From Patescibacteria group bacterium UBA1388 (GTDB lineage Bacteria > Patescibacteriota > Microgenomatia > UBA1400 > PJMF01), in the NCBI GenBank assembly GCA_002305355.1, contig DBQS01000016.1, positions 36,279-100,278 of the forward strand: a DNA stretch of 64,000 nucleotides. Reading direction: 5' to 3'. This document shows, one piece after another, positions 10,772 to 54,210 of this stretch. The notes under the pieces were generated by a model. The model worked only from the letters and a program-made list of their open reading frames with translations. It searched no databases and was not told where the DNA came from. Both the position numbers and the translations under genes were made by a program. Numbering within the stretch: position 1 is the first letter of the stretch; the number at the start of each line of letters is the position of its first letter.

Positions 10772-11827
10772 TTATCTCGCGCCTACTGAGCCAATCAAAC
10801 CATAAATTGGAGCGATGATCGCCATCATCATCCCTCCCACCGCCAGTCCCACAAAAACAAGCAAGAGCGGTTCTAGCATAGCTGTCATTTTCTTTACAGA
10901 CTTACTCACCTTATAATCCATATTCTCAGATACATTTTGCATTGCTTCCTCAAGCGTGCCACTCTTCTCACCAACTTCCATTAACTTAATCATAATGCCA
11001 GGAATAATGTTCTGCTTGCTTTGTAAACCATGAGAAAAAGGATGACCAGCAACAGCTTGCTCTCGAGCTTGATCCACCAAATCTCTGACTTCTTTTTTTA
11101 AAATTACCTCCTGAGCAAGTTCTAATGAGGTGGTGATAGGGATACCAGAAGAAAGAAGTAAATGTAAACTCCGACTAAATCTGGTGATATCGATTTCACG
11201 AATTAGCTTAGAAACTCCAGGAAATGAAAATGCTATTTGTAAGATAAACTCACGTTTGGTTTGATACAAAACAAAAATAATCATCACTAACAACGCTACA
11301 ATTCCGAGTACAATTTGCCAATTGCCAGTCAAAGCGTTGGAAGTAAAGATTAATGCTTTCGTCGCCATTGGAAGAGTGACATTCAACCTTGTAAATACAG
11401 TTGAAATACGAGGAATAACAAACAATAACATACCCAACAACACGCCAATAAAAACAATCATCACGACAATCGGATAAAACATGGCTGACTTCACACCGTC
11501 AATGAATTCCATTTCTTTTTTAATATTCCCCTGCAAATCGTACAATGTTTCTTCAAGTGTACCTGCTTCTTCAGCGGCTTTAATCAAACTCACTGTGACT
11601 TTGTCGAAAGTATAAGGATATCTAGAAAAAGAGTCGGAAATTTGTTTGCCTGCAGAAATATCTTCACGCAAGGACAGTAAAATCTTTCTTTGGTTTCCTT
11701 TTGCTTCTGCGAGCAACGAGTCGACTGTTTCTGAAATAGGGATACCAGCCGACAACATCGTTTTTAAATTAGCGATTAAGCTAATTTTTTCCTCTTGCGC
11801 TAATCTAACTCTGCCGAATCCAAACAT
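10772..11827 (-). CDS. pilC: Type IV pilus assembly platform protein PilC / GspF family
   Basis: Two T2SS-F repeats (MLSAGIPISE and LLSSGIPITT) and three TM segments. It starts 3 nt after the pilB stop. Confidence 0.85.
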   Translation of the reverse strand: MFGFGRVRLAQEEKISLIANLKTMLSAGIPISETVDSLLAEAKGNQRKILLSLREDISAGKQISDSFSRYPYTFDKVTVSLIKAAEEAGTLEETLYDLQGNIKKEMEFIDGVKSAMFYPIVVMIVFIGVLLGMLLFVIPRISTVFTRLNVTLPMATKALIFTSNALTGNWQIVLGIVALLVMIIFVLYQTKREFILQIAFSFPGVSKLIREIDITRFSRSLHLLLSSGIPITTSLELAQEVILKKEVRDLVDQAREQAVAGHPFSHGLQSKQNIIPGIMIKLMEVGEKSGTLEEAMQNVSENMDYKVSKSVKKMTAMLEPLLLVFVGLAVGGMMMAIIAPIYGLIGSVGAR

Positions 11828-11830
11828 GCC

Positions 11831-13525
11831 CTACTCCATTTCAGTCTTGGTCACTCTTAATACTTCTTCAATCGTGGTCATGCCCTTAGTAATTTTTTCA
11901 ATTCCATCATCAAACATGCTAGTTAATCCCTCTTTGAGGGCTTGTTCACTTATCGCATCTGCATCTGCTTTTTTGGCAATTAATTCTCGCAAATCCTTGG
12001 AAACTTCCAGAACTTCATAAATTCCAATTCTGCCCTTATAACCAGTGTTATGACACACTCGGCACCCTTGACCTCGATAAACTCTAACTTCTTTTTTATC
12101 ACCTACGGGAATGTAGTGTTTATTAATCGTTTCGAGAGAAAGATATTTTTGCAACTCTGTCACTGGTATTGTTTCTGAAACTCGACAATGTGGGCAGATC
12201 CTTCTCACCAGTCTTTGAGCTACAATCACATGCACCGTACCAGCTACTAAAAATGGCTCAACCTTCATATCAAATAACCGAGGCAACGAGGAAACTGCAT
12301 TGTTCGTGTGCAAGGTTGAGAAAACAAGATGTCCAGTCAAAGCCGCATTGATCGCAATGGCAGCGGTCTCATTGTCCCTAATTTCTCCCACAAATATGTA
12401 ATCAGGATCCTGTCTTAATAGGGACCTCAGACCATTGGCAAAAGTTAAATTTGTTTTTTCATTGACTTGCACCTGATTAGCACCTTTAATCCTATACTCA
12501 ACTGGATCTTCAATACTGGTGAGATTAGTTTCCCGCGTGTTGATCGTTTTTAGAATTGAGTAAATAGTAGTCGTTTTTCCAGATCCAGTTGGGCCGGTCA
12601 CCAAAATCATGCCGTCAGTTCTGGCAGCTGCCTTTTTAATTTTTACCAAATCTGTTTCATTAATACCTAGCTCTTCCAAAGAATAAGACCTAGCTTGAGA
12701 TGTCAACAGTCTCATCACAACTTTTTCGCCTTCTGCAATGGGAATTATTGAAACACGCAAGTCCAGTCGCTCTCCGTTAATATCCATTTTAATTTTACCG
12801 TCTTGTGCCGCTAAGTGCTGATCAGTTCTTAAGCTTGATAAAACTTTAATTCTAGTCACAATTCTACCGAGCAAGTCTTTAGGCAGACTGGCAATGTCAT
12901 GTAAAATCCCGTCAATCCTAAATCTGACCAACACCTCATCTTCATTGGGTTCAATATGAATATCTGATGCATGCTCTAAATAAGCAGCTTTAATCACTTC
13001 ATCGACCAATTTTTTAACGGGTGGATCGTGAGCAACTGTGCGCATCACTCTTCCATCTGCTTCATTCAGTAACTTACTAAATATTTCCTGAAAATCGGTG
13101 TGATAATTTAATAAGGTTTGATTTAAATCTTGTTCAGTAGCAAAAAAGATTTTGACTTGTTTGCCTGTTTTTTGGGCTACTAGTTTGGGTAAAATTTGAT
13201 TCTTAAAATCGGCTGTGGCAATACTGACATACTTTTCATCTTCTGCAAAAGTCACCATTTTATGACGTTTTGCTACCTCCTCAGGCATAATGTTCATCGT
13301 TTCATCAGAAATATTTTGTTTACTCAATTCAACAAATGGCACTTTAATTACTTCGGCAACTAACTTTCCCATAGCCTGATCGGTGGTATATCCTTTTTCA
13401 ACCAAACCATCCCAAAGACTCACATCTGTCTCTTCTGCAAATTTAGCGATTTTTTTGAGATCTGTGCGGCTGATAATTTTTTTAGCCAACAACAAATTGC
13501 TGAGTTGGGCATCAGTGAGTTGCAT
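11831..13525 (-). CDS. pilB: Type IV pilus assembly ATPase PilB / GspE family
   Basis: Walker A is VTGPTGSGKTTT. Asp/His boxes are RQDPDYIFVGEIRD and TGHLVFSTLHTN. The tetracysteine motif is CPHC...CRVC. An N-terminal T2SSE_N-like domain is present. Confidence 0.9.
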   Translation of the reverse strand: MQLTDAQLSNLLLAKKIISRTDLKKIAKFAEETDVSLWDGLVEKGYTTDQAMGKLVAEVIKVPFVELSKQNISDETMNIMPEEVAKRHKMVTFAEDEKYVSIATADFKNQILPKLVAQKTGKQVKIFFATEQDLNQTLLNYHTDFQEIFSKLLNEADGRVMRTVAHDPPVKKLVDEVIKAAYLEHASDIHIEPNEDEVLVRFRIDGILHDIASLPKDLLGRIVTRIKVLSSLRTDQHLAAQDGKIKMDINGERLDLRVSIIPIAEGEKVVMRLLTSQARSYSLEELGINETDLVKIKKAAARTDGMILVTGPTGSGKTTTIYSILKTINTRETNLTSIEDPVEYRIKGANQVQVNEKTNLTFANGLRSLLRQDPDYIFVGEIRDNETAAIAINAALTGHLVFSTLHTNNAVSSLPRLFDMKVEPFLVAGTVHVIVAQRLVRRICPHCRVSETIPVTELQKYLSLETINKHYIPVGDKKEVRVYRGQGCRVCHNTGYKGRIGIYEVLEVSKDLRELIAKKADADAISEQALKEGLTSMFDDGIEKITKGMTTIEEVLRVTKTEME

Positions 13526-13531
13526 ACTTTT

Positions 13532-13537
13532 ATCATA
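13532..13537 (-). promoter_or_regulatory. Candidate -10 box (TATGAT) 6 nt upstream of the pilB ATG
   Basis: The minus strand reads GTATATGATAAAAGTATG. There is no Shine-Dalgarno sequence between the box and the ATG. The -35 position (TTCATT, 13560..13555) abuts the IS boundary. Confidence 0.35.
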
Positions 13538-13559
13538 TACTAAAAATTAACTAAAATGA

Positions 13560-13566
13560 AACTTTT
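13560..13566. repeat. Target-site duplication AACTTTT (left copy) of the IS481-like element
   Basis: An identical 7-mer directly flanks both ends of the element (13560..13566 and 14644..14650). The neighbouring bases differ. Confidence 0.7.
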
Positions 13567-14643
13567 GTTAGTCGCACATACTTTTCGGAAAATTGGTTGT
13601 AATAAATTGCACTGGTGATTGATAATTTAGTGCCATATGTGGTCGCTTGGTGTTGTACCAAGCTAAGTACTTAGTTAGTTTAACTTGGAAAGTGTTTAAG
13701 TCATAGTAGATCTCATCATTTCTGTTAATAAACTCTTCTTGGATGGTTCTGTTAAATCTTTCAACAACACCATTAATTTTGGGTGATCTAGGATAAATAA
13801 ATTGATGTTTAATTTTTTGCTTCTCCAGATACTGGTGAAATGTTTTAAAAAATTCTGACCCGTTGTCTGTTTGGACTGTATAAACTTGATGAGGCAAAAT
13901 ATTTTGGAATTCCTGAAAAGTAATTTTAGCTTGCAAGCTAGAGAGAGTGCTAACTTTCCTGACATGAGCTAGCTTTGTAAAGATATCGATACAACACATG
14001 AAGTTGTGTCGAGTGTTGTCGATATACACCACCACAGAGTCCATTTCGATATATCCTGGTTTAGTAACCTTAGGAGATCTTCTTGATCTATCTTTAGATA
14101 ATTTATTCTTTCTCTTAACTCTTCTTGGTGGATCAAAGAATAAGTTTCTTCTCCTAATCACTTTAGAAATAGTTCGACTGCTAATTGAGGGTATATTAAG
14201 CTCACCAGCATATTCATCTAAAAAGATCTTGAGTTTTCTTTCTCCAATGTTGCCATGCTGCTCTCTAAACTCACGAATAAACTGAACTAATCTCCAATCA
14301 GTCGTCATCTGTCTAACTCTCTTGGGACGAGTCTTCTTAGGTACCAGTGATAACAGAGCTTTTCCAGATTCTTCATACTTTCTTTTCCAGTCATACAAGG
14401 TAGATTTGCCAATCTTGAATGCTTGAATAGCTGATTTGTAGCCATATTTGTAGTAGTGATCTAGCACGTGGAGTCTAAACTTGGCAGGATCTGATTTATC
14501 AAAGTTAAGTGAGTTTTCAAGTGTCTTCATCAACCAATCATACTGATTGTTATATGAAAACAACTCAATATTTCGTCTAATCCCAACTCCTTGTTTAACT
14601 TTCACGACTATCTTTCCATTCCGGAAAGTATCGTGCGACATTC
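13567..14643 (-). mobile_element. IS481-family-like insertion sequence, 1077 bp, single transposase ORF, imperfect ~25 bp terminal inverted repeats, 7 bp TSD
   Basis: The ends read inward as GTTAGTCGCACATACTTTTCGGAA and GAATGTCGCACGATACTTTCCGGAA. It is flanked by AACTTTT direct repeats and encodes one DDE (rve) transposase spanning almost the whole element. Confidence 0.75.
13568..14641 (-). CDS. DDE transposase (integrase core / rve domain), IS481-like
   Basis: An N-terminal HTH (KIGKSTLYDWKRKYEESG), then rve motifs VQTDNGSEF and SPKINGVVERFNRTIQEEF. It is a single unfragmented ORF. The true start may be the internal ATG at 14530 (MKTLENS). Confidence 0.8.
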   Translation of the reverse strand: MSHDTFRNGKIVVKVKQGVGIRRNIELFSYNNQYDWLMKTLENSLNFDKSDPAKFRLHVLDHYYKYGYKSAIQAFKIGKSTLYDWKRKYEESGKALLSLVPKKTRPKRVRQMTTDWRLVQFIREFREQHGNIGERKLKIFLDEYAGELNIPSISSRTISKVIRRRNLFFDPPRRVKRKNKLSKDRSRRSPKVTKPGYIEMDSVVVYIDNTRHNFMCCIDIFTKLAHVRKVSTLSSLQAKITFQEFQNILPHQVYTVQTDNGSEFFKTFHQYLEKQKIKHQFIYPRSPKINGVVERFNRTIQEEFINRNDEIYYDLNTFQVKLTKYLAWYNTKRPHMALNYQSPVQFITTNFPKSMCD

Positions 14644-15881
14644 AACTTTTTATCACCCAAAAATCCAGTTACTTCTGGTCTAATTATTTCTTTTTGAATT
14701 AACAAACCAGACGTCACGGTAAACAATCCATAACGATCATTCAAAGTATCAACTGCCTGAGAGATTTGTTCTTGTTGCCACCAACCCGGAAACCAGCAGT
14801 CTTGAATTTCAGACCATGGTTTGAGCAAAGACACGCCAACGTGCAATCTAATCACTGGAAATTGATTTCGCCAATTGGGGTATAACTGATACTTAATTAA
14901 ATCAAACATTTCGCTGACGTGTCGAACATAATATTTCAGGGTAAGATGATCTGCCCAAAACTGATGATTGCCAGCCAATGAACAAAAAACCAAACGACCC
15001 GCCAACTTCATTTTACGTAATTTATAAATTACTTCCTCTGAAAGATTATAAAGTGTGGACATAATCAAATCTTGGCTGCTGCTCAACCTGTATCCAGTGA
15101 TTGAGCGACTGACACTTTTCATGTAGGGTAAGTCATTTGCCAAGCGTTTTAAAAACAGCGGTTCTTCACCACGACCCATTTTACGCAGTTCATCACTCCA
15201 AAAAGGACCAAACATCGATCTTAAAACTTCAGTGGGAATAAAATTAATTTGATAAGGTACAGTTACTCCAATTCTGCCAAGACGCTTCGCTAAACGTGGA
15301 CCAATTCCGCAAACGTCTTTAAACTGAGTTTGAGCTAATATAAGCGCTTTGTTTGCTGCTGTAACTTGCCGCACGCTACCCTTTGGCGCAGTTTCACCAA
15401 CCATTTTAGCTAAAAATCGATTCTCCGCGATCCCAATATTGCAGGTCACCCACTCTCCTAAAATTGATTTAACTTTATCTTGAATTTTCAAGGCAAAATT
15501 ATATGGTGAATCGTATAATTTTTGAATCTGAGCATAATCAATAAAAACTTCATCTAAAGAAAATACTTCTGTGCTGGGACTAAGCTGATCAAACAACTCC
15601 TTCAAGCGCTTGGTAGCCGAGAAATACATTTCAAAAGCGGCTGGCATCTCAACTAAGTCAGGAGCAAGCTGGTATGCCTCTGCTAAAGAACAACCGGTAC
15701 CAATACCTTTTAATTTTGCCTCTTTGGAAGCAGCAATCACACAACTTCTACCCAATTCTTTTACAACCACCACCGGCTTATTGCGCAAAGCGGGTGTTTC
15801 CTGTTGGAGAAGGGTGGCAAAGTAAGAATTAATATCAATGTGCAGTACAACTTGTTGTTTCAGATGGTTAAGTTCATTCAC
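14595..15881 (-). CDS. dinB: Y-family DNA polymerase IV; C-terminal tail now encoded by IS sequence
   Basis: LHIDINSYFATLLQ, FSLDEVFID, and a little-finger-like C-terminal half. The start is set at GTG 15881, 6 nt after a GGAGG; the ORF-track ATG at 15923 overlaps the upstream ORF by 50 nt. The last 15 sense codons plus the stop (14595..14642, LNVARYFPEWKDSRES, completing the split codon 14645..14643) lie inside the IS. Confidence 0.8.
   Translation of the reverse strand: MNELNHLKQQVVLHIDINSYFATLLQQETPALRNKPVVVVKELGRSCVIAASKEAKLKGIGTGCSLAEAYQLAPDLVEMPAAFEMYFSATKRLKELFDQLSPSTEVFSLDEVFIDYAQIQKLYDSPYNFALKIQDKVKSILGEWVTCNIGIAENRFLAKMVGETAPKGSVRQVTAANKALILAQTQFKDVCGIGPRLAKRLGRIGVTVPYQINFIPTEVLRSMFGPFWSDELRKMGRGEEPLFLKRLANDLPYMKSVSRSITGYRLSSSQDLIMSTLYNLSEEVIYKLRKMKLAGRLVFCSLAGNHQFWADHLTLKYYVRHVSEMFDLIKYQLYPNWRNQFPVIRLHVGVSLLKPWSEIQDCWFPGWWQQEQISQAVDTLNDRYGLFTVTSGLLIQKEIIRPEVTGFLGDKKLNVARYFPEWKDSRES
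14644..14650. repeat. Target-site duplication AACTTTT (right copy)
   Basis: See 13560..13566. Confidence 0.7.
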
Positions 15882-16119
15882 ACCATACCTCCGCCAATTC
15901 CCACACCTCTTCACTCCGGTCAAAAATTAAACGATAATTATTACCCTGTGACATGACCGAGTATTGACGTTTGCTGATTTGGCTATCACGAATTTCCGAA
16001 ATAAAAGTTACCCTATCCACTGCATAAATCCTTCCTTGCCACTCAAATTTTCTAGGAATAAAATGGGCTTTTTTATAGACACCAACCACATTAATCCGCT
16101 CGCCAATAACCTGGTACAT
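15874..16119 (-). CDS. Small hypothetical protein (81 aa) translationally coupled to dinB
   Basis: An intact ORF whose last codons contain the GGAGG preceding the dinB GTG. I recognised no family. Confidence 0.45.
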   Translation of the reverse strand: MYQVIGERINVVGVYKKAHFIPRKFEWQGRIYAVDRVTFISEIRDSQISKRQYSVMSQGNNYRLIFDRSEEVWELAEVWCE

Positions 16120-16386
16120 ATCAATTTTCTTTCTTCAATCTGTTGAACGTATTTGTCAAAAGAGTAGAAAAAAACCCGAATATTAGCAAGAGGTATAAAT
16201 AGATCATTCATAACCAAATGCGTGGGTTTTCTTCGGTAAAAATTAAATAAAATCACGATTCTTTAGCAGATTACTTCCATAGATAGTCGTCCAAAAAATA
16301 ATCCGCTTTTATAAACAATTCCTCTCTTAATATATAAACCTAATCTACAAGTCTAGAGAAGATACCGTAAACAGCGCGTCAATTTC

Positions 16387-25376: not shown

Positions 25377-25792
25377 TCAACAAGAATCGAGAAAATCACC
25401 AGACTGTTTGGGTAGTCGACGATGATCAAGGTATTCTTGACGTGGTGAAAATTATATTTGAACAGGAATGTTTTCCAGGCAAATATTTTAGTGATCCTAA
25501 ACTGATGCAAGCAGAAATATCTCGGGGAAACCGGCCAAGCCTGTTGTTGCTTGATGTGTTTATGCGAGGTGTCAATGGCGTTAATATTGCGCTAAACTTA
25601 AAAAATCAGTGTCAAACGAAGCACATTCCAATTATCTTGCTGACTGCCGATCTCGATGCTGCTGAAAAAGCGAAACAAGCAAAAGTGGAAGGATTCTTAA
25701 CCAAGCCCTTTGACATCGCAGAATTATTAGCTGTCGTAAAAAAGTATGTCGTCATTGATCACCCAGGTCATGATCTACATCCTAACCCATAA
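25373..25792 (+). CDS. Single-domain response regulator (receiver only)
   Basis: VWVVDDDQGIL ... LLLLDVFMRGVNG ... LTAD ... LTKPFD. The ATG at 25373 overlaps the kinase stop as ATGA. Confidence 0.8.
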   Translation: MINKNRENHQTVWVVDDDQGILDVVKIIFEQECFPGKYFSDPKLMQAEISRGNRPSLLLLDVFMRGVNGVNIALNLKNQCQTKHIPIILLTADLDAAEKAKQAKVEGFLTKPFDIAELLAVVKKYVVIDHPGHDLHPNP

Positions 25793-26668
25793 GATAAAAC
25801 TTCTCCACAAAACCAATATCACCATCAATCCCAACATAATTCGCCAATTTGTACAAAAGAAGAGCGCTTCTACCAATAAAGCAGTCCATAAACCACCATA
25901 TTTTTTAAAGTACTCAAACCGACTTTTCCGATAAATTTTATTAAGATCTGATGATACCTGTATGTCTTCTTTTTTTTGATCATGGATCACTATTGCTTCC
26001 GGTAAGATGACCAGCTTTAAACCTGCTCGGCTAATCCTCCTCCCGAAGTCCCACTCCTCAAAATAAAGAAAGAAGCGAGCATCAAAGCGTCCCAGCGTAT
26101 GAAACAATTCCCGGCCAATCATCATGGCACATCCGGGAATAGCTGCCAATTTGGCTGAATCAAACCCGTCAATATTTGCCAGATAATGTCGACGTGCTAC
26201 CGGGTTTTGTGGCCACAAGCGATGTATGCTGGTGTGGCTCATCAAATAAGTCCAGATTGTAAGCGGACCACTACCTTGATAAATATATTCTTGGCCATTT
26301 GTGTGTAAAAGTGTTGGCGCGACTGCTCCCACATGAGAATGCTTGCTTAGATAATTACTCAACTGGCTAACGATGTCCGTTTTTACAATTACGTCTGGGT
26401 TTAAAAATAATAAATACTTGCCTGCTGCATGATCCGCTCCTAAATTATTGCCTCCCCCATAACCCAAATTTTGACCAGCAACCAAATAAGTAATGCTCTT
26501 TCTACCTCTTAATTGATCTGCCAATATCTCGTTGCCTTCATTGTCCACAATGATGATTTCGTAGTTTTCAATTGCGCACTTTTCTCGAATAGAATTCAAA
26601 CAACGATGCAACTGCTGTGCACTGCGATAATTCACGATGATAATTGAAACGAGAGGTAAACCAGACAT
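25775..26668 (-). CDS. Family 2 glycosyltransferase
   Basis: VSIIIVNYRSAQQLHRCLNSI ... IIIVDNEG ... LFLNPDV are the GT-A fold DxD contexts. Confidence 0.8.
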   Translation of the reverse strand: MSGLPLVSIIIVNYRSAQQLHRCLNSIREKCAIENYEIIIVDNEGNEILADQLRGRKSITYLVAGQNLGYGGGNNLGADHAAGKYLLFLNPDVIVKTDIVSQLSNYLSKHSHVGAVAPTLLHTNGQEYIYQGSGPLTIWTYLMSHTSIHRLWPQNPVARRHYLANIDGFDSAKLAAIPGCAMMIGRELFHTLGRFDARFFLYFEEWDFGRRISRAGLKLVILPEAIVIHDQKKEDIQVSSDLNKIYRKSRFEYFKKYGGLWTALLVEALFFCTNWRIMLGLMVILVLWRSFILWVRM

Positions 26669-36118: not shown

Positions 36119-37924
36119 CTACATCCGCTGCGGCACCTCTATCCCTAATAATTCCAGTCCTAAACGGAGCACCCGTCCAAAAGCAGTCGTCAGAACAAGT
36201 CTGGCAGTGGTTTGAGCCCGATCATCAGTCACGATCTGCACCGAGTGATAAAATCTGGTGAAATTTTTCGCCAAGTCATAGAGATAAATTGCCAATCCTG
36301 AAGGGTTATAATTGGCCGCTGCTTGCTCAATCGATTCCGGAAATTTGGCCAAAGACAGGACCAACTGAAACTCCTCTTCTGTACCTAGCTCCAGGTGATC
36401 AAAATCCGGTTGAAAAATGTGCTCATCAAACTGACCTTTTTGCAGTAGTGATTGAGATCTGGCATAAGCATATTGTAAGTAAGCAGCACTATTTCCTTCT
36501 AAAGAGATAATCTTATCCCAATCAAAAGTAATGGTGCGACCCGGATCACCTGATAAATCTGTCCACTTGATGGCACCAATCGCCACTTGGTGAATTAATC
36601 GCTCTTTATCTTCAACGTTCTCAACCCGAGTTCTTTCTTCAACCAACTTGGTCGCCCGCTTAATGGCTTCATCGATCACCTCATCAAGCATCACCACCCG
36701 TCCTTTTCTAGTAGACATCTTGCCATCGGGCAATCTGATCATGCCAAATGAAACATGTTTCATTTGCGCAGGCTCAGCATAGCCCAACCGATGCATGATC
36801 TCAAAAAGTTGTTTTAAGTATAAGTTTTGGTCATTACCCACTACATAAATTAAATGATCAGCGCGTAATTCGGTGAGACGATATTTAGCAGTCGCGATAT
36901 CCCGCGTCATATAAATTGTGGCACCGTCAGATTTTTGAATAATGCTTGTCCCCAACCCCACATCTTCAAGATTAATCACGACTGCGCCTTCACTTTCCTG
37001 CGCGACACCCTTCTGATATGCCTCGTGAATGATTTCCTGGAGCATAGGTTCGTAAAAACTCTCACCAAGTGCCAAATCAAACTTGACACCAAGCCGGTCA
37101 TAAGTTTTCTGAAAATCAGCTAAAGACCAGTCCACTATCTGTTGCCAGCGTTTGCGAGCTGTTTTATCACCCTCTTCTAATCTTTTAAACCATGCGCGGC
37201 CGGCGGCTTTGATTTTTGCCGCTTGTTTGGTCGCTTCATCTAGGTCTTGATGAACATAATATTCTGACTGCGGATCGCCGGCCGCACTTACTTTGACATA
37301 CAATTTTTGCAACTCTGGAATAGGATCTTTGGCAATCTGCGCCTCATCCCCCCACAGCTCAATCGCCGCTAACAAGTGGCCAAACTGAGTACCCCAATCG
37401 CCAAGATGATTATCCTTGACCACTTCATACCCCAACTTCAAATAAATTTTAGCAAGTGCATCACCAATGATCGTTGATCGCAAATGACCTACACTCATCC
37501 GTTTGGCAATATTGGGCGAAGACATATCGATCACCACTTTGTGAGGCTGCGCTAAACTGTTGGCGCCGTAATCATCAGCCTGTTGCCAAATTTGCTGCAA
37601 AACCCGATTGGTGAACTGGGTTTTTTTTAAACTGACGTTAATATAAGCACCGACTGCAAAATAATGGTCAACCAAACTGCTTGATTCCACCATAAGCTTC
37701 TTCGTTAAACTGTCCGCGATCGCGGCTGGATCAGCGTGCAATTCTTGGCTAAAAATGCCACAATGGAAACCTAAATCTCCCACTTCAGTGGCTGGCACAC
37801 TAATAATCGGCACTTTGTTAGCTAATTCAGGTGAAATCCCACTGCGCTGCAATGCAGCTCGAATCTCGTCTTTAATTTTTGCTAATACTGGCTGATTTGG
37901 TGAATCGTGAGCTATGTTTAACAT
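36119..37924 (-). CDS. argS: Arginine--tRNA ligase
   Basis: SPNIAKRMSVGHLRSTIIGD is the HIGH-type motif. Also HLGDWGTQFG, MSTRKG (KMSK-like), and a DALR anticodon-binding C-terminus ending in Met. Confidence 0.95.
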   Translation of the reverse strand: MLNIAHDSPNQPVLAKIKDEIRAALQRSGISPELANKVPIISVPATEVGDLGFHCGIFSQELHADPAAIADSLTKKLMVESSSLVDHYFAVGAYINVSLKKTQFTNRVLQQIWQQADDYGANSLAQPHKVVIDMSSPNIAKRMSVGHLRSTIIGDALAKIYLKLGYEVVKDNHLGDWGTQFGHLLAAIELWGDEAQIAKDPIPELQKLYVKVSAAGDPQSEYYVHQDLDEATKQAAKIKAAGRAWFKRLEEGDKTARKRWQQIVDWSLADFQKTYDRLGVKFDLALGESFYEPMLQEIIHEAYQKGVAQESEGAVVINLEDVGLGTSIIQKSDGATIYMTRDIATAKYRLTELRADHLIYVVGNDQNLYLKQLFEIMHRLGYAEPAQMKHVSFGMIRLPDGKMSTRKGRVVMLDEVIDEAIKRATKLVEERTRVENVEDKERLIHQVAIGAIKWTDLSGDPGRTITFDWDKIISLEGNSAAYLQYAYARSQSLLQKGQFDEHIFQPDFDHLELGTEEEFQLVLSLAKFPESIEQAAANYNPSGLAIYLYDLAKNFTRFYHSVQIVTDDRAQTTARLVLTTAFGRVLRLGLELLGIEVPQRM

Positions 37925-42654: not shown

Positions 42655-43599
42655 TTATATCCTAATCAATTGATATTCCAGCGAACCCAAACCAATTCGA
42701 TTCGCATATGCAAAAATACCGTAATCGTTGAACGGTCTTTTACCTTCTCTTTTTTCCAACAGATCAAAACAGGCTTTGTCAATTGCCACAGGATCTGTTG
42801 AAGCCAACAAACCTAGATCATCATAAATAAGTGGCATTGGTTCACCATCACAATCACAATTAGCAGTAATATTGATCGCAAAATTTAAATAAATATATTT
42901 TTGGCCATGCACTGCTGCTAAAGCATATTCTGCCACTCTCTCAGCAAATGTTTGACCATAATAAACATAATCATCATTCCAAATTTGGGAGCTACCAGTA
43001 GGCACTTGACTCGCTTTTGCCCAGTCAATTCTTTCTGTGACAGGGATTTCTACCTTGGCATGCGCCTCAGTTTTTCCACGACCAGACGCAAAACCAATTC
43101 CCAGTTGTTTGATTGCCCCGCCAAACCCAGTCATGATGTGCCCCTTAAAGTGACTCATCGCCAACACCTGATTTTGATCGGATAAACCTGCGGCAATCTT
43201 GCAGGTCTTGAAATGCTTGCCATTTCTTATCGATACCTCCACGTGGTCAAAACCGTCTTCGCCGTCAGCTATCTTGGCAGGAATATCTGTAAAGCCATGA
43301 TCTTTTAACACTTGCAAGTGTTTGTCTTCGGTTGAACGAATTCCAGCAGCGGTATTAGTTTCAATGTAGTACGGCTTAATTTCTTGATCTAATAAGTGGT
43401 CGATCAGATCTGAGTATGTCTGTGGTCTGGTAAATGTAGTATTTCCTGGTTCTCCTGAATGAATTTTGATGGGTAAATTTTTTTGTAAACTGAGTTGTTC
43501 ACTCTCGACTAGTTTTTTGAAAATTTGCAGCGTACCGGCTGCTAAAGCATCTGGATTAGTGAGCTTCTTGGCTGAAAGAAAGTAAACATTAGTCATCAT
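42655..43599 (-). CDS. DUF362 / COG2768-type uncharacterised protein
   Basis: MMTNVYFLS ... PIKIHSGEPGN ... ETNTA ... IADG ... MSHFKGHIMTGFGGAIKQLGIGFASGRGKTEAH matches my memory of this family. The start is moved to ATG 43599. Confidence 0.6.
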   Translation of the reverse strand: MMTNVYFLSAKKLTNPDALAAGTLQIFKKLVESEQLSLQKNLPIKIHSGEPGNTTFTRPQTYSDLIDHLLDQEIKPYYIETNTAAGIRSTEDKHLQVLKDHGFTDIPAKIADGEDGFDHVEVSIRNGKHFKTCKIAAGLSDQNQVLAMSHFKGHIMTGFGGAIKQLGIGFASGRGKTEAHAKVEIPVTERIDWAKASQVPTGSSQIWNDDYVYYGQTFAERVAEYALAAVHGQKYIYLNFAINITANCDCDGEPMPLIYDDLGLLASTDPVAIDKACFDLLEKREGKRPFNDYGIFAYANRIGLGSLEYQLIRI

Positions 43600-43650
43600 A
43601 GTGGGCAGTCTAACATACTTTATTGACTCAATAAATATAAAATTCAGCAC

Positions 43651-43673
43651 CCCCCCCGCCTTTGGCGGGGGGG
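43651..43673 (-). terminator. GC-only hairpin downstream of ORF 43734..44153 (weak U-tract)
   Basis: CCCCCCCGCC-ttt-GGCGGGGGGG is a 10 bp stem. On the minus transcript the T-rich run starts only about 8 nt later. Confidence 0.35.
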
Positions 43674-43733
43674 TAGGAATCAGTCTTCAGATATGGTCCC
43701 AATAAGGGTTACACTGTTAAGTAAATAGTATTC

Positions 43734-45404: not shown

Positions 45405-45788
45405 CTAATGATGGTGCTCTTCTTCAGCGGCCATAGCTTCATCGCGAGTGGCATGAATCGTGCCAGCGGGATGATTTGGCGGAGAATAAAGCGTGTACAG
45501 CTTCAAGTCATTGCTGCCAGTATTAGTTAGATTGTGCTCACTCCCCGCTGGCACAACTACCGCTGATCCATCTTTGATAGCAAACGTTTCACCATCAATC
45601 AACACTTCTCCCTCACCTTCATCAACTCTAAAAAATTGATCAACATGGTCGTGGACTTCTTTACCAATGTCTTCTCCTGGCTTTAAACTCATCAACACCA
45701 GTTGAGTGTGCTCACCGGTAAAAATCACTTCGCGAAAATTAAAATTTTCTTTAGTCAATTTTTCAATATCATCTACAAAACCTTTCAT
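45405..45788 (-). CDS. Cupin-domain protein with a His-rich C-terminus
   Basis: The two cupin motifs are GEDIGKEVHDHVDQFFRV and VVVPAGSEHNLTNTG. The protein ends EEEHHH. The RBS is GAAAGGAGGATAGG. Confidence 0.8.
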   Translation of the reverse strand: MKGFVDDIEKLTKENFNFREVIFTGEHTQLVLMSLKPGEDIGKEVHDHVDQFFRVDEGEGEVLIDGETFAIKDGSAVVVPAGSEHNLTNTGSNDLKLYTLYSPPNHPAGTIHATRDEAMAAEEEHHH

Positions 45789-45844
45789 CCTATCCTCCTT
45801 TCAAAAGATATTAAATATATATACTGGTTTCATTATATACCCGC

Positions 45845-45888
45845 TTTCACGACTACCTTTCCATTCCGGAATGTATCGTGCCCAATTC
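45845..45888. repeat. Solo copy of the IS481-like element's transposase-proximal end (remnant)
   Basis: TTTCACGACTACCTTTCCATTCCGGAATGTATCGTGC matches 14600..14636 with 2 mismatches by eye. Similarity decays through ...ATTC, where the IS ends. Confidence 0.6.
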
Positions 45889-45935
45889 ATCATCGAAATG
45901 TATTGTGCAATATTTACAACTGCTGAGATCATTTA

Positions 45936-45956
45936 CATTCCGAAAAGTATCGCGCC
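45936..45956. repeat. Second, shorter degenerate copy of the IS terminal repeat
   Basis: CATTCCGAAAAGTATCGCGCC compares with the IS sequence CATTCCGGAAAGTATCGTGCG, in the same orientation as the copy at 45845. A third weaker copy is TCGAAATGTATTGTGC at about 45893. Confidence 0.4.
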
Positions 45957-46060
45957 TCGTACTCAATATGTCCATTCCACCATAACAAAGCATGTCTTTC
46001 CAAGTAAATCTAGTTTCTAATTTTCCCTTTTGCAAAAATTTATTGTAGGATGGATACAAT

Positions 46061-46948
46061 ATGGCAAATCATCATCCCACCCAACCAAATCCTGTCCCAG
46101 ACAATACAACTGTCAATCAGTCAATGCCAACAACTGCTCAGTCAGCTCAAACCAACCCCGTTGCACCACCCAACCAAGCTGCTCAACCCCTACAAACTAC
46201 ACCTAAGCCCAGCCAACCTACCCCCAACCAACCAGCACCCGCCCAATCTCAGACAACAGCAACTCCTACTCTCTCCACAGACAACATCGCACCCGCTGTT
46301 TATGGTCAAAAACCCAGTTCAAAAAATAAACTTGCCATCATGCTAATCATCTTTGTGTTTCTGGCAGCTCTCGCTGCCGGTGTCTATTTTATGTTTGGCG
46401 AACAACTCATCGATCAATTTACCCCAGCCCCTTCTGAACCAGAGCGAGAGGTATTTGTTGATCCTCTGCTCGATATGCCGGGCGCAACTTCTGGTAGTTA
46501 TATGTTAGATAATGATCCTACTGTGATCTATGAAGAGGACCCTGCGATTACCGAACCAACAACTTCTCAAGATGACGGGCAACTTTCCACTACAAAACCT
46601 AGTGCCACTCCAACTTCTCTCTCAGAAGCTAACGAATTGTCATTGCCAAAATACACCAACTCAACATATGGTTTTGAGGTTTCCTACCCAGACTCATATC
46701 AGCTGATGACCGATAGTGAAAATCTTTATGGACACCCGAATGGCGTGGCGCTACTGTATAAAGGCGGCCAAGCCTACGACATTGTCATTGAAGTATGGGA
46801 TACTGAGGCTGAATATCAAGCTGCCTATGTGGGCAGAGCCAACGACCTGAAAGTTATTCAAAATCAAGGCAAATTTATCACCATTCTCAACAACACCCAA
46901 GAACCAGATAATCAGGCAATTATTGATTCATTCAAATTGGTAAATTAA
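46061..46948 (+). CDS. Hypothetical membrane-anchored protein with a Pro/Gln/Thr-rich N-terminal region
   Basis: A low-complexity PTQPNP/QPAPAQ region, one TM (LAIMLIIFVFLAALAAGVYFMF), and a C-terminal globular domain. Confidence 0.45.
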   Translation: MANHHPTQPNPVPDNTTVNQSMPTTAQSAQTNPVAPPNQAAQPLQTTPKPSQPTPNQPAPAQSQTTATPTLSTDNIAPAVYGQKPSSKNKLAIMLIIFVFLAALAAGVYFMFGEQLIDQFTPAPSEPEREVFVDPLLDMPGATSGSYMLDNDPTVIYEEDPAITEPTTSQDDGQLSTTKPSATPTSLSEANELSLPKYTNSTYGFEVSYPDSYQLMTDSENLYGHPNGVALLYKGGQAYDIVIEVWDTEAEYQAAYVGRANDLKVIQNQGKFITILNNTQEPDNQAIIDSFKLVN

Positions 46949-53724: not shown

Positions 53725-54210
53725 CTATTGAGGATCAGCTAAATTTTCAAGCAGTGTACTTTTTGGCTGCCCAAGCCGCCGATAAGTCAGGTCGATAGCA
53801 AACTTTCCCGCCAACATCGCCATAATTATGAGTACTAAACCAATAAAACCACTTATTTCTACGTCTTTACCAAAAATAAAGTCCAACACAGCCAGGAAAA
53901 CAAACTTAGAAAAAAACATCACTAGCCAAACGCTCAACACTAGCCACACTTTAGCCGCTTTACCATTTTTACTTTTGAAGTATTTAGCAATTTTTTTCTT
54001 CAACTCTAGGGTTAAGTAAGTCAAGATCTGCATCACCACCGCAACCATAAACGTGGTAGAGTAAGAAGTTGTGTTTAAAATGTCAGTGTAGTCATTAAAA
54101 AATCCCAATACTACTGCATAAACTAGTACTCCTAGCACCATTTGCAGAAATAAATCCTGCTTAGGAGTAGTAACAGATTTTAGAGTGGAAGCAGACTTGG
54201 GTTTGGTCAT
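53725..54210 (-). CDS. Hypothetical four-TM membrane protein
   Basis: An intact ORF between the giant HD protein and the membrane AAA+ gene, on the same strand. Confidence 0.4.
   Translation of the reverse strand: MTKPKSASTLKSVTTPKQDLFLQMVLGVLVYAVVLGFFNDYTDILNTTSYSTTFMVAVVMQILTYLTLELKKKIAKYFKSKNGKAAKVWLVLSVWLVMFFSKFVFLAVLDFIFGKDVEISGFIGLVLIIMAMLAGKFAIDLTYRRLGQPKSTLLENLADPQ

Follow-up and report, generated by a model that had tools for sequence, protein, structure and literature searches.

What lies between dinB and pilB in the stretch of Patescibacteria group bacterium UBA1388 DNA analyzed here (64,000 nucleotides of contig DBQS01000016.1; hereafter, the window), and what did its arrival change for the two genes? 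The initial annotation had read a recent insertion of an IS481-like element between dinB, which encodes a Y-family DNA polymerase IV (Pol IV), and pilB, which encodes the type IV pilus assembly ATPase. Comparison with related metagenomic sequences bore out this reading. We consider it very likely that an autonomous insertion sequence (IS) of the IS481 type, 1079 bp long, transposed into the chromosome of one strain of an uncultured Patescibacteria (Microgenomates-like) species, directly after the GDKK codons of dinB. The element would have landed 5 bp upstream of the -35 position of pilB, duplicating ACTTT. This is an ordinary IS insertion polymorphism, well supported, and the element is of a known type.

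A search for empty sites and for other copies of the element yielded both. In-silico excision of the element and one flanking repeat gives a DinB ending in ...GDKKFHFS, the TAA stop codon of which (13549-13547) is followed after 21 nt by the pilB ATG (13525). This junction, as the initial annotation had reconstructed it, is base-for-base identical to real empty sites in four independent metagenome assemblies, the flanks of which are 98.3-99.8% identical to the window: L003 (SRR8925735; 99.1% flank identity, gene order hsp20, dsbD, orf81, dinB, pilB, pilC), L169 (JGI 3300026159; 98.3-99.8%), L170 (SRR8925817; 99.5-99.6%) and L172 (SRR29050539; 99.4-99.6%). ACTTT occurs once in the real empty sites. 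The site is likewise empty in a more distant species (L004, L005 and L086; 86% DinB identity). The two most similar DinB homologues, at 98% and 86% identity, are both 416 amino acids long and end in GDKKFHFS. The occupied site was recovered from L166 (SRR5321221), 100% identical over 6.9 kb, perhaps representing the same data as the window.

Near-identical copies of the element were found at two other sites. The copy in L001 differs at 2 of 1079 positions (99.8% identity) and is flanked by rplJ/rplL and thrS, an unrelated locus. The L001 contig and the empty-site contig L169 were assembled from one JGI sample, and the tetranucleotide composition of the former correlates with that of the window at r = 0.979 (r = 0.986 for L169). 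At a third site, in the activated-sludge contig UOWO01004132 (L026; 1498-2279), the first 782 bp of the element are present at 100% identity, followed by an abrupt change to unrelated sequence, indicating a truncated or chimeric copy. Because empty alleles exist in near-identical strains and near-identical copies exist elsewhere, the insertion is recent and the element mobile. By this comparison of alleles and copies, the insertion is derived, recent and strain-polymorphic. The element is probably still active, a possibility that the initial annotation had raised. As a separate observation, the upstream flank of the L026 copy (TTGATAAAAGCATG) is similar to the pilB start region.

The empty sites would have a different meaning if the insertion were ancestral in the species and the other strains had lost it when the element and one duplication copy were precisely excised. 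The flanking direct repeats could permit such excision via replication slippage, and one species-level lineage alone was sampled in depth. However, repeats of 5 bp rarely support precise excision, which would have had to occur several times independently, as the site is empty in the four independent assemblies and also in the species with 86% DinB identity. In addition, the restored tail, GDKKF[HQ]F[SG], is a family-wide conserved motif, and the element and its copies elsewhere are separated by only 0-2 nt, indicative of recent movement. The identity values are also compatible with a nesting of the occupied strain among empty-site strains, without proving it. Repeated precise excision is thus much less parsimonious than recent gain, and we regard an ancestral insertion as highly improbable.

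Still harder to credit is an assembly artefact, in which a multi-copy repeat was misjoined between dinB and pilB. Frequent collapse or chimeric joining in this family is suggested by the many relatives on contigs of ~1.08 kb and the many copies without matching duplications. Both junctions in the window are clean, however, and the 5-bp duplication is an exact copy of a sequence that is single in the empty site, which a chimeric join would not have produced. The identical occupied site in the Logan assembly of SRR5321221 also argues against a misjoin, though with the above reservation about its source data. Recent transposition therefore remains the preferred reading.

To define the element, the window copy was set against 17 further full-length copies, taken from L001, L002 and the metagenome scan (18 in total). 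All 18 begin with TGAAT and finish with AACA, and the element is therefore assigned to 13566-14644. The initial annotation had described a 1077-bp element with imperfect inverted repeats, delimited as GTTAGTCGCACATACTTTTCGGAA at 13567-13590 and GAATGTCGCACGATACTTTCCGGAA, the reverse complement of 14619-14643. The repeats were confirmed, whereas the length was corrected to 1079 bp with TG...CA ends. The terminal inverted repeats measure ~25 bp and are imperfect, with one indel. Read inward, the right end is TGTTAG and the left end TGAATG. Shuffles of the window gave an expectation of 0 matches to the end motif. The GC content of the element is 35.5%, compared to 38.5% for the window.

The heptamer AACTTTT, initially taken as a 7-bp target-site duplication, is indeed present on both sides of the element (13560-13566 and 14644-14650). 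A model with a 7-bp duplication and G...C ends was nevertheless rejected, as it fails in 16/16 other copies. The heptamer's two extra matching bases belong to the element, being its terminal T and A, and by coincidence match the adjacent target bases. With the corrected ends, 5 bp are duplicated: AAAGT on the gene strand of the window, CTTAG in L001, ATGCC in L002, AAAAA in L017 and GAAAA in L018. A perfect 5-bp duplication was found in 4 of the 16 other copies tested, and one further copy (L016) has 6 bp; the chance of a perfect duplication is ~0.001 per copy. A point against this assignment is that ~11 of the 16 related metagenomic copies have no clean duplication. These are probably chimeric assemblies of a repeat. 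Note that the reconstructed empty site is identical under the 5-bp and 7-bp models, and that neither flanking repeat extends into a longer one.

A single continuous open reading frame (ORF) for the transposase fills the element, with no second ORF and no frameshift site in the copies compared, and gene calls for most full-length relatives give one protein of 320-357 amino acids. The longest ORF in the window copy encodes 357 amino acids (13568..14641, minus strand), starting with an ATG at 14641. Pfam identifies helix-turn-helix domains (HTH_28/HTH_23) and an integrase core (rve/rve_2/rve_3; rve_3 1.9e-19). Residues D201, D259 and E294 (numbering of the 357-residue ORF) are at least 97% conserved in an alignment of 120 homologues, and all three are present in the window copy, consistent with the intact transposase described initially. 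The D-to-E spacing is 35 residues (DD35E).

The ATG at 14641 was rejected as the conserved start, since all other lineages have ATA or ATT at this position. In contrast, the GTG at codon 13 (14605-14603) is universal in the compared copies (ATG in L018) and has an AAAGG-type ribosome-binding site in front of it. In L019 and L045, a 2-nt indel disrupts the frame upstream of the GTG, while the GTG frame is kept. Synonymous variation begins downstream of this codon. Judging from these comparisons, the transposase is most likely a protein of 345 amino acids starting at the GTG. The initial TGA of the element (positions 1-3), which is universal in the copies, blocks read-in translation of the transposase frame. 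The TAA that terminates dinB, 8 nt past the transposase GTG, is lineage-specific. The idea that the family is designed to stop host translation just past the transposase start was therefore rejected, the TAA being lineage-specific though the TGA is universal.

The best NCBIfam transposase model is IS481 (NF033577; 158.8 bits, E = 2e-46), and the closest annotated proteins are ISKpn28-type transposases of the IS481 family, found in plasmid records (~32% identity over ~86% of the length), in agreement with the family named in the initial annotation. Straightforward membership is called into question by two of these values: the score lies below the curated cut-off of 224, and the identity to named IS481 members is only ~32%. 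Based on score and identity, the element is thus a distant IS481 member or belongs to a sister lineage. TG...CA termini are typical of IS481/IS3-type elements, and duplications in the IS481 family are 2-15 bp, mostly 6 bp, according to ISfinder (PMC10045372). With the IS481 family (IS481 of Bordetella pertussis; ISKpn28) the element shares a single DD35E transposase with N-terminal helix-turn-helix and rve core, a length of ~1 kb, inverted repeats with TG...CA ends (right end TGT) and a duplication within the 2-15 bp range. It differs in making 5 bp where most members make 6, in its left end (TGA, not TGT) and in its host, a member of the candidate phyla radiation (CPR).

Some of these features would also fit a single-ORF derivative of the IS3 family. 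The IS3 NCBIfam model matches residues 54-346 with 111 bits (cut-off 160), the left end TGA is like that of many IS3 members, and duplications of 5 bp are typical within the IS2 subgroup of IS3 (PMC10045372), with which the element also shares a related rve-type DDE core and TG...CA ends. However, the IS481 model scores higher (158.8 versus 111 bits), and the closest annotated proteins belong to the IS481 family. Moreover, every copy has one continuous ORF, without the two-ORF (orfA/orfB) layout, a second ORF or the site of a -1 programmed frameshift. At 1.08 kb the element is also short, as typical IS3 members are longer (ISfinder length ranges). We therefore judge an IS3 origin to be improbable and retain the assignment to IS481 or a sister lineage.

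The family is abundant. At E <= 1e-10 we found 1599 transposase relatives, the source names of which indicate Microgenomates/Patescibacteria. Many lie on contigs of ~1.08 kb, the usual mark of a multi-copy, assembly-breaking repeat. CPR genomes are small and often assumed to be poor in mobile elements. The locus provides a clean, documented case of recent IS activity in such a genome, with alleles, ends, duplication and other copies established. Exact boundaries for an abundant CPR IS lineage will help annotation and explain contig breaks in metagenome-assembled genomes of this kind. Any wider interest is limited to the natural C-terminal truncation of dinB and to the pointer to leaderless-type promoters, which are considered in turn.

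The insertion point lies right after the GDKK codons of dinB, four codons before the stop codon. As the initial annotation had noted, the last 16 residues of the present DinB (LNVARYFPEWKDSRES) are encoded by the element; they replace the native FHFS, and the gene now stops at 14595. DinB contains an IMS domain (PF00817, 1.4e-33) and the little-finger domain IMS_C (PF11799, 2.5e-5). Several NCBIfam Pol IV models also match, all below their own cut-offs. We surveyed the DinB tail in homologues (P0121-P0240) and species representatives (L086-L165), alongside the window sequence at 14645-14700. All 120 homologues listed, down to ~50% identity, and also nearly all of the 80 species-representative genomes carry the tail PEVTG[FY]LGDKx[FY][QHY][FL] at or near the C-terminus. 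Relatives without the element carry GDKKFHFS/G, not the chimeric tail. As an aside, the title 'uncultured Pseudomonadales bacterium' on L086, L092, L096 and many other species-representative metagenome-assembled genomes with a clearly Patescibacteria-type dinB (and pilB) is apparently a mislabelling.

As a consequence of the insertion, DinB would have lost the end of a strongly conserved C-terminal motif and gained a 16-residue tail encoded by the element. The canonical beta-clamp-binding consensus is QL[SD]LF. E. coli Pol IV (DinB) resembles CPR DinB in having a short conserved peptide at the extreme C-terminus of a Y-family polymerase, and its C-terminal clamp-binding motif is indispensable for translesion synthesis (PMC11892629). 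Going by position, the CPR tail could be the equivalent of this motif. If it is a clamp- or partner-binding peptide, DinB function would be weakened or abolished. Since the displaced tail belongs to a conserved CPR motif, function may be impaired by the tail swap. Two observations make such an effect less certain. The CPR motif, GDKx[FY][QH][FL], differs from QLVLGL and does not match the canonical QL[SD]LF, and the chimeric KKLNV keeps the hydrophobic-x-hydrophobic pattern of KKFHF. Because of this retained pattern, the chimeric DinB might be partly functional.

The transposase gene could be co-transcribed with the orf81-dinB operon, as it follows dinB on the same strand and no terminator is predicted between the two genes. 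Translational coupling of dinB and transposase is also possible, because the dinB stop codon lies 8 nt past the transposase GTG; within 14595-14605, termination-reinitiation from dinB to the transposase is conceivable in the window copy. Taken together, if the DinB peptide is a non-canonical clamp- or partner-binding motif, the occupied strain would be a translesion-synthesis hypomorph existing beside wild-type strains, in which the truncated dinB shares a transcript, and possibly translational coupling, with the transposase gene. We put this combined scenario forward tentatively and regard it as rather doubtful.

Turning to the other side of the element, the initial annotation had placed the insertion upstream of a weak -35 position, yet its title called the pilB promoter displaced. 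The position was correct, but the title goes too far. As the position itself implies, the core promoter of pilB, as predicted from the sequence, is retained and not displaced, because the putative -10 and -35 elements lie wholly on the pilB side of the insertion. The -10 hexamer TATGAT lies six nt before the pilB ATG, a leaderless-type layout, and the weak -35 abuts the duplication. The arrangement TAT(G/C)AT-N6-ATG at pilB is kept in four species, with spacers of 21, 59 and 88 nt that are otherwise unrelated, and pilB has no Shine-Dalgarno sequence in the four species. Across the window, 12 of the 49 long-ORF starts have a TATAAT-like hexamer (at least 5/6 matches) ending 5-7 nt upstream, compared to ~1 at each other offset, while Shine-Dalgarno-like sites are present at only 9 of the 49. 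Examples of leaderless-type starts are 16423, 23340, 25775-26668(-), 36119-37924(-), 48071, 53725-54210(-) and 59494.

These observations support a pilB-proximal promoter predicted to give a leaderless mRNA, and leaderless-type promoters appear to be widespread in the genome. On the other side of the balance, a generic sigma-70 scan of 13300-16300 detected no pilB promoter above chance, and the evidence for the leaderless promoter is comparative and positional only. A literature search on leaderless mRNAs in Patescibacteria found nothing substantive. With the leaderless-type core promoter kept, pilB and pilC would probably still be expressed, and the insertion would be tolerated for this reason. 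Most simply, an insertion here is tolerated since pilBC expression is left largely intact. What has changed for pilB is the sequence upstream of the -35, together with possible read-through from the transposase gene, the stop codon of which lies 2 nt from the element end.

It had also been suggested that the element either insulates pilBC from dinB read-through or supplies outward transcription. No positive support was obtained for either role. In the scan of 13300-16300 for sigma-70 promoters and terminators, counts equaled those of shuffles, with nothing at the pilB junction or at the outward end of the element, and the transposase strand of the element itself showed no terminator-like site. 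A hybrid promoter formed with the terminal CTAACA was considered and rejected, as this hexamer lies, by eye, 28 nt from the native -10, which is too far.

An adaptive insertion, rewiring pilBC expression via an outward promoter or transposase read-through, has a precedent in Bordetella pertussis, where IS481 elements alter or drive the transcription of neighbouring genes (PMC6161684, PMC3053399). There, as here, the element (upstream of bteA, or giving rise to IS481-derived transcripts) lies just upstream of a surface/virulence-type gene in the same orientation. However, the effect was measured in B. pertussis (PMC3053399, PMC6161684), whereas the present case was analyzed at the sequence level, where the core promoter appears intact. 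Read-through into pilB would be possible, given the closeness of the transposase stop codon to the element end and the lack of a predicted terminator. Against rewiring, the 3' end of the element has no outward promoter-like site, the distance of CTAACA from the -10 is too great for a hybrid promoter, and the native core promoter is untouched. Moreover, as pilB has no Shine-Dalgarno sequence, its AUG would be poorly translated when internal to a read-through transcript, and the insertion occurs in only one strain background. An adaptive role is thus unlikely, and tolerance of the insertion with largely unchanged pilBC expression is preferred.

The coordinates of the element, its remnants and the neighbouring genes are listed in the table below. 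On the minus strand, the order is orf81, dinB, element (transposase in the same direction), pilB and pilC, as determined by reading the window at 12300-15000 and from scripted coordinates.

Features of the dinB-pilB locus and remnants of the same IS family in the window
Feature	Coordinates	Strand	Basis or remark
Insertion sequence, complete, 1079 bp, TG...CA termini	13566..14644	-	Compared with 17 other copies; nhmmer profile match spans 1-1079
Left inverted repeat (transposase 5' end), TGAATGTCGCACGATACTTTCCGGAA	14619..14644	-	
Right inverted repeat (transposase 3' end), inward on the plus strand TGTTAGTCGCACATACTTTTCGGAA	13566..13590	-	Includes transposase stop 13568-13570
Target-site duplication, pilB-side copy	13561..13565		ACTTT on the plus strand, AAAGT on the gene strand
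Target-site duplication, dinB-side copy	14645..14649		ACTTT on the plus strand
Transposase, 345 amino acids (most likely), from family-conserved GTG 14605	13568..14605	-	Start-codon comparison; homologue conservation
dinB, chimeric, Y-family DNA polymerase IV, 428 amino acids, GTG start 15881	14595..15881	-	Same 428-residue call in L166
Native dinB end, orphaned (codons ...FHFS and TAA), cut off from gene	13547..13560	-	
orf81, 81 amino acids	15874-16119	-	8-nt overlap with dinB GTG
Putative pilB promoter, intact	13532..13560	-	-35-like TTCATT 13555-13560, 17-nt spacer, -10 TATGAT 13532-13537
pilB, type IV pilus assembly ATPase	11831..13525	-	Pfam/NCBIfam
pilC	10772-11827	-	After pilB
Solo 51-bp remnant, 5' end of same IS family	45839..45889	-	blastn 95% over 38 bp; nhmmer E = 4e-11
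Second, more degenerate 5'-end remnant, same orientation	45900..45958	-	nhmmer E = 0.006

Upstream of the element, dinB starts at a GTG preceded by a GGAGG ribosome-binding site. Because of this site and the 8-nt overlap, orf81 and dinB are, as predicted from their layout, a translationally coupled pair. The orf81 gene is conserved beside dinB in the relatives L003 and L004, and its product gives a weak match to DUF6504 (E = 1.2e-4, below cut-off); possibly it serves the Y-family polymerase as an accessory factor. A conserved dinB-pilB operon was rejected, since only 3 of 80 species representatives have pilB immediately after dinB, indicating a local arrangement. No SOS-type operator (Cheo-box) was found near dinB; the sole GAAC-N4-GTTC in the window, at 2525, corresponds to chance level. 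An Rfam scan of the whole 64-kb window gave zero matches, and exact-sequence look-ups of the window PilB and transposase returned no identical entry; related loci were instead reached by homology searches and through the small neighbouring proteins.

Two remnants of the same IS family are located elsewhere in the window, ~70 bp apart, between a cupin gene (45405..45788, minus strand) and a gene for a proline/glutamine-rich membrane protein (46061..46948, plus strand). The remnant at 45839-45889 is nearer to the family consensus than it is to the intact copy. A derivative of ~395 bp in L072 (1483-1877) is internally deleted but keeps both ends (segments 1-47, 235-369 and 868-1079), and is a candidate non-autonomous element. 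Finally, at ~43650-43680, upstream of an ORF at 42655..43650 (minus strand), the otherwise AT-rich genome contains a conspicuous palindrome of G/C runs, CCCCCCCGCCAAAGGCGGGGGGG, which is hairpin- or terminator-like.

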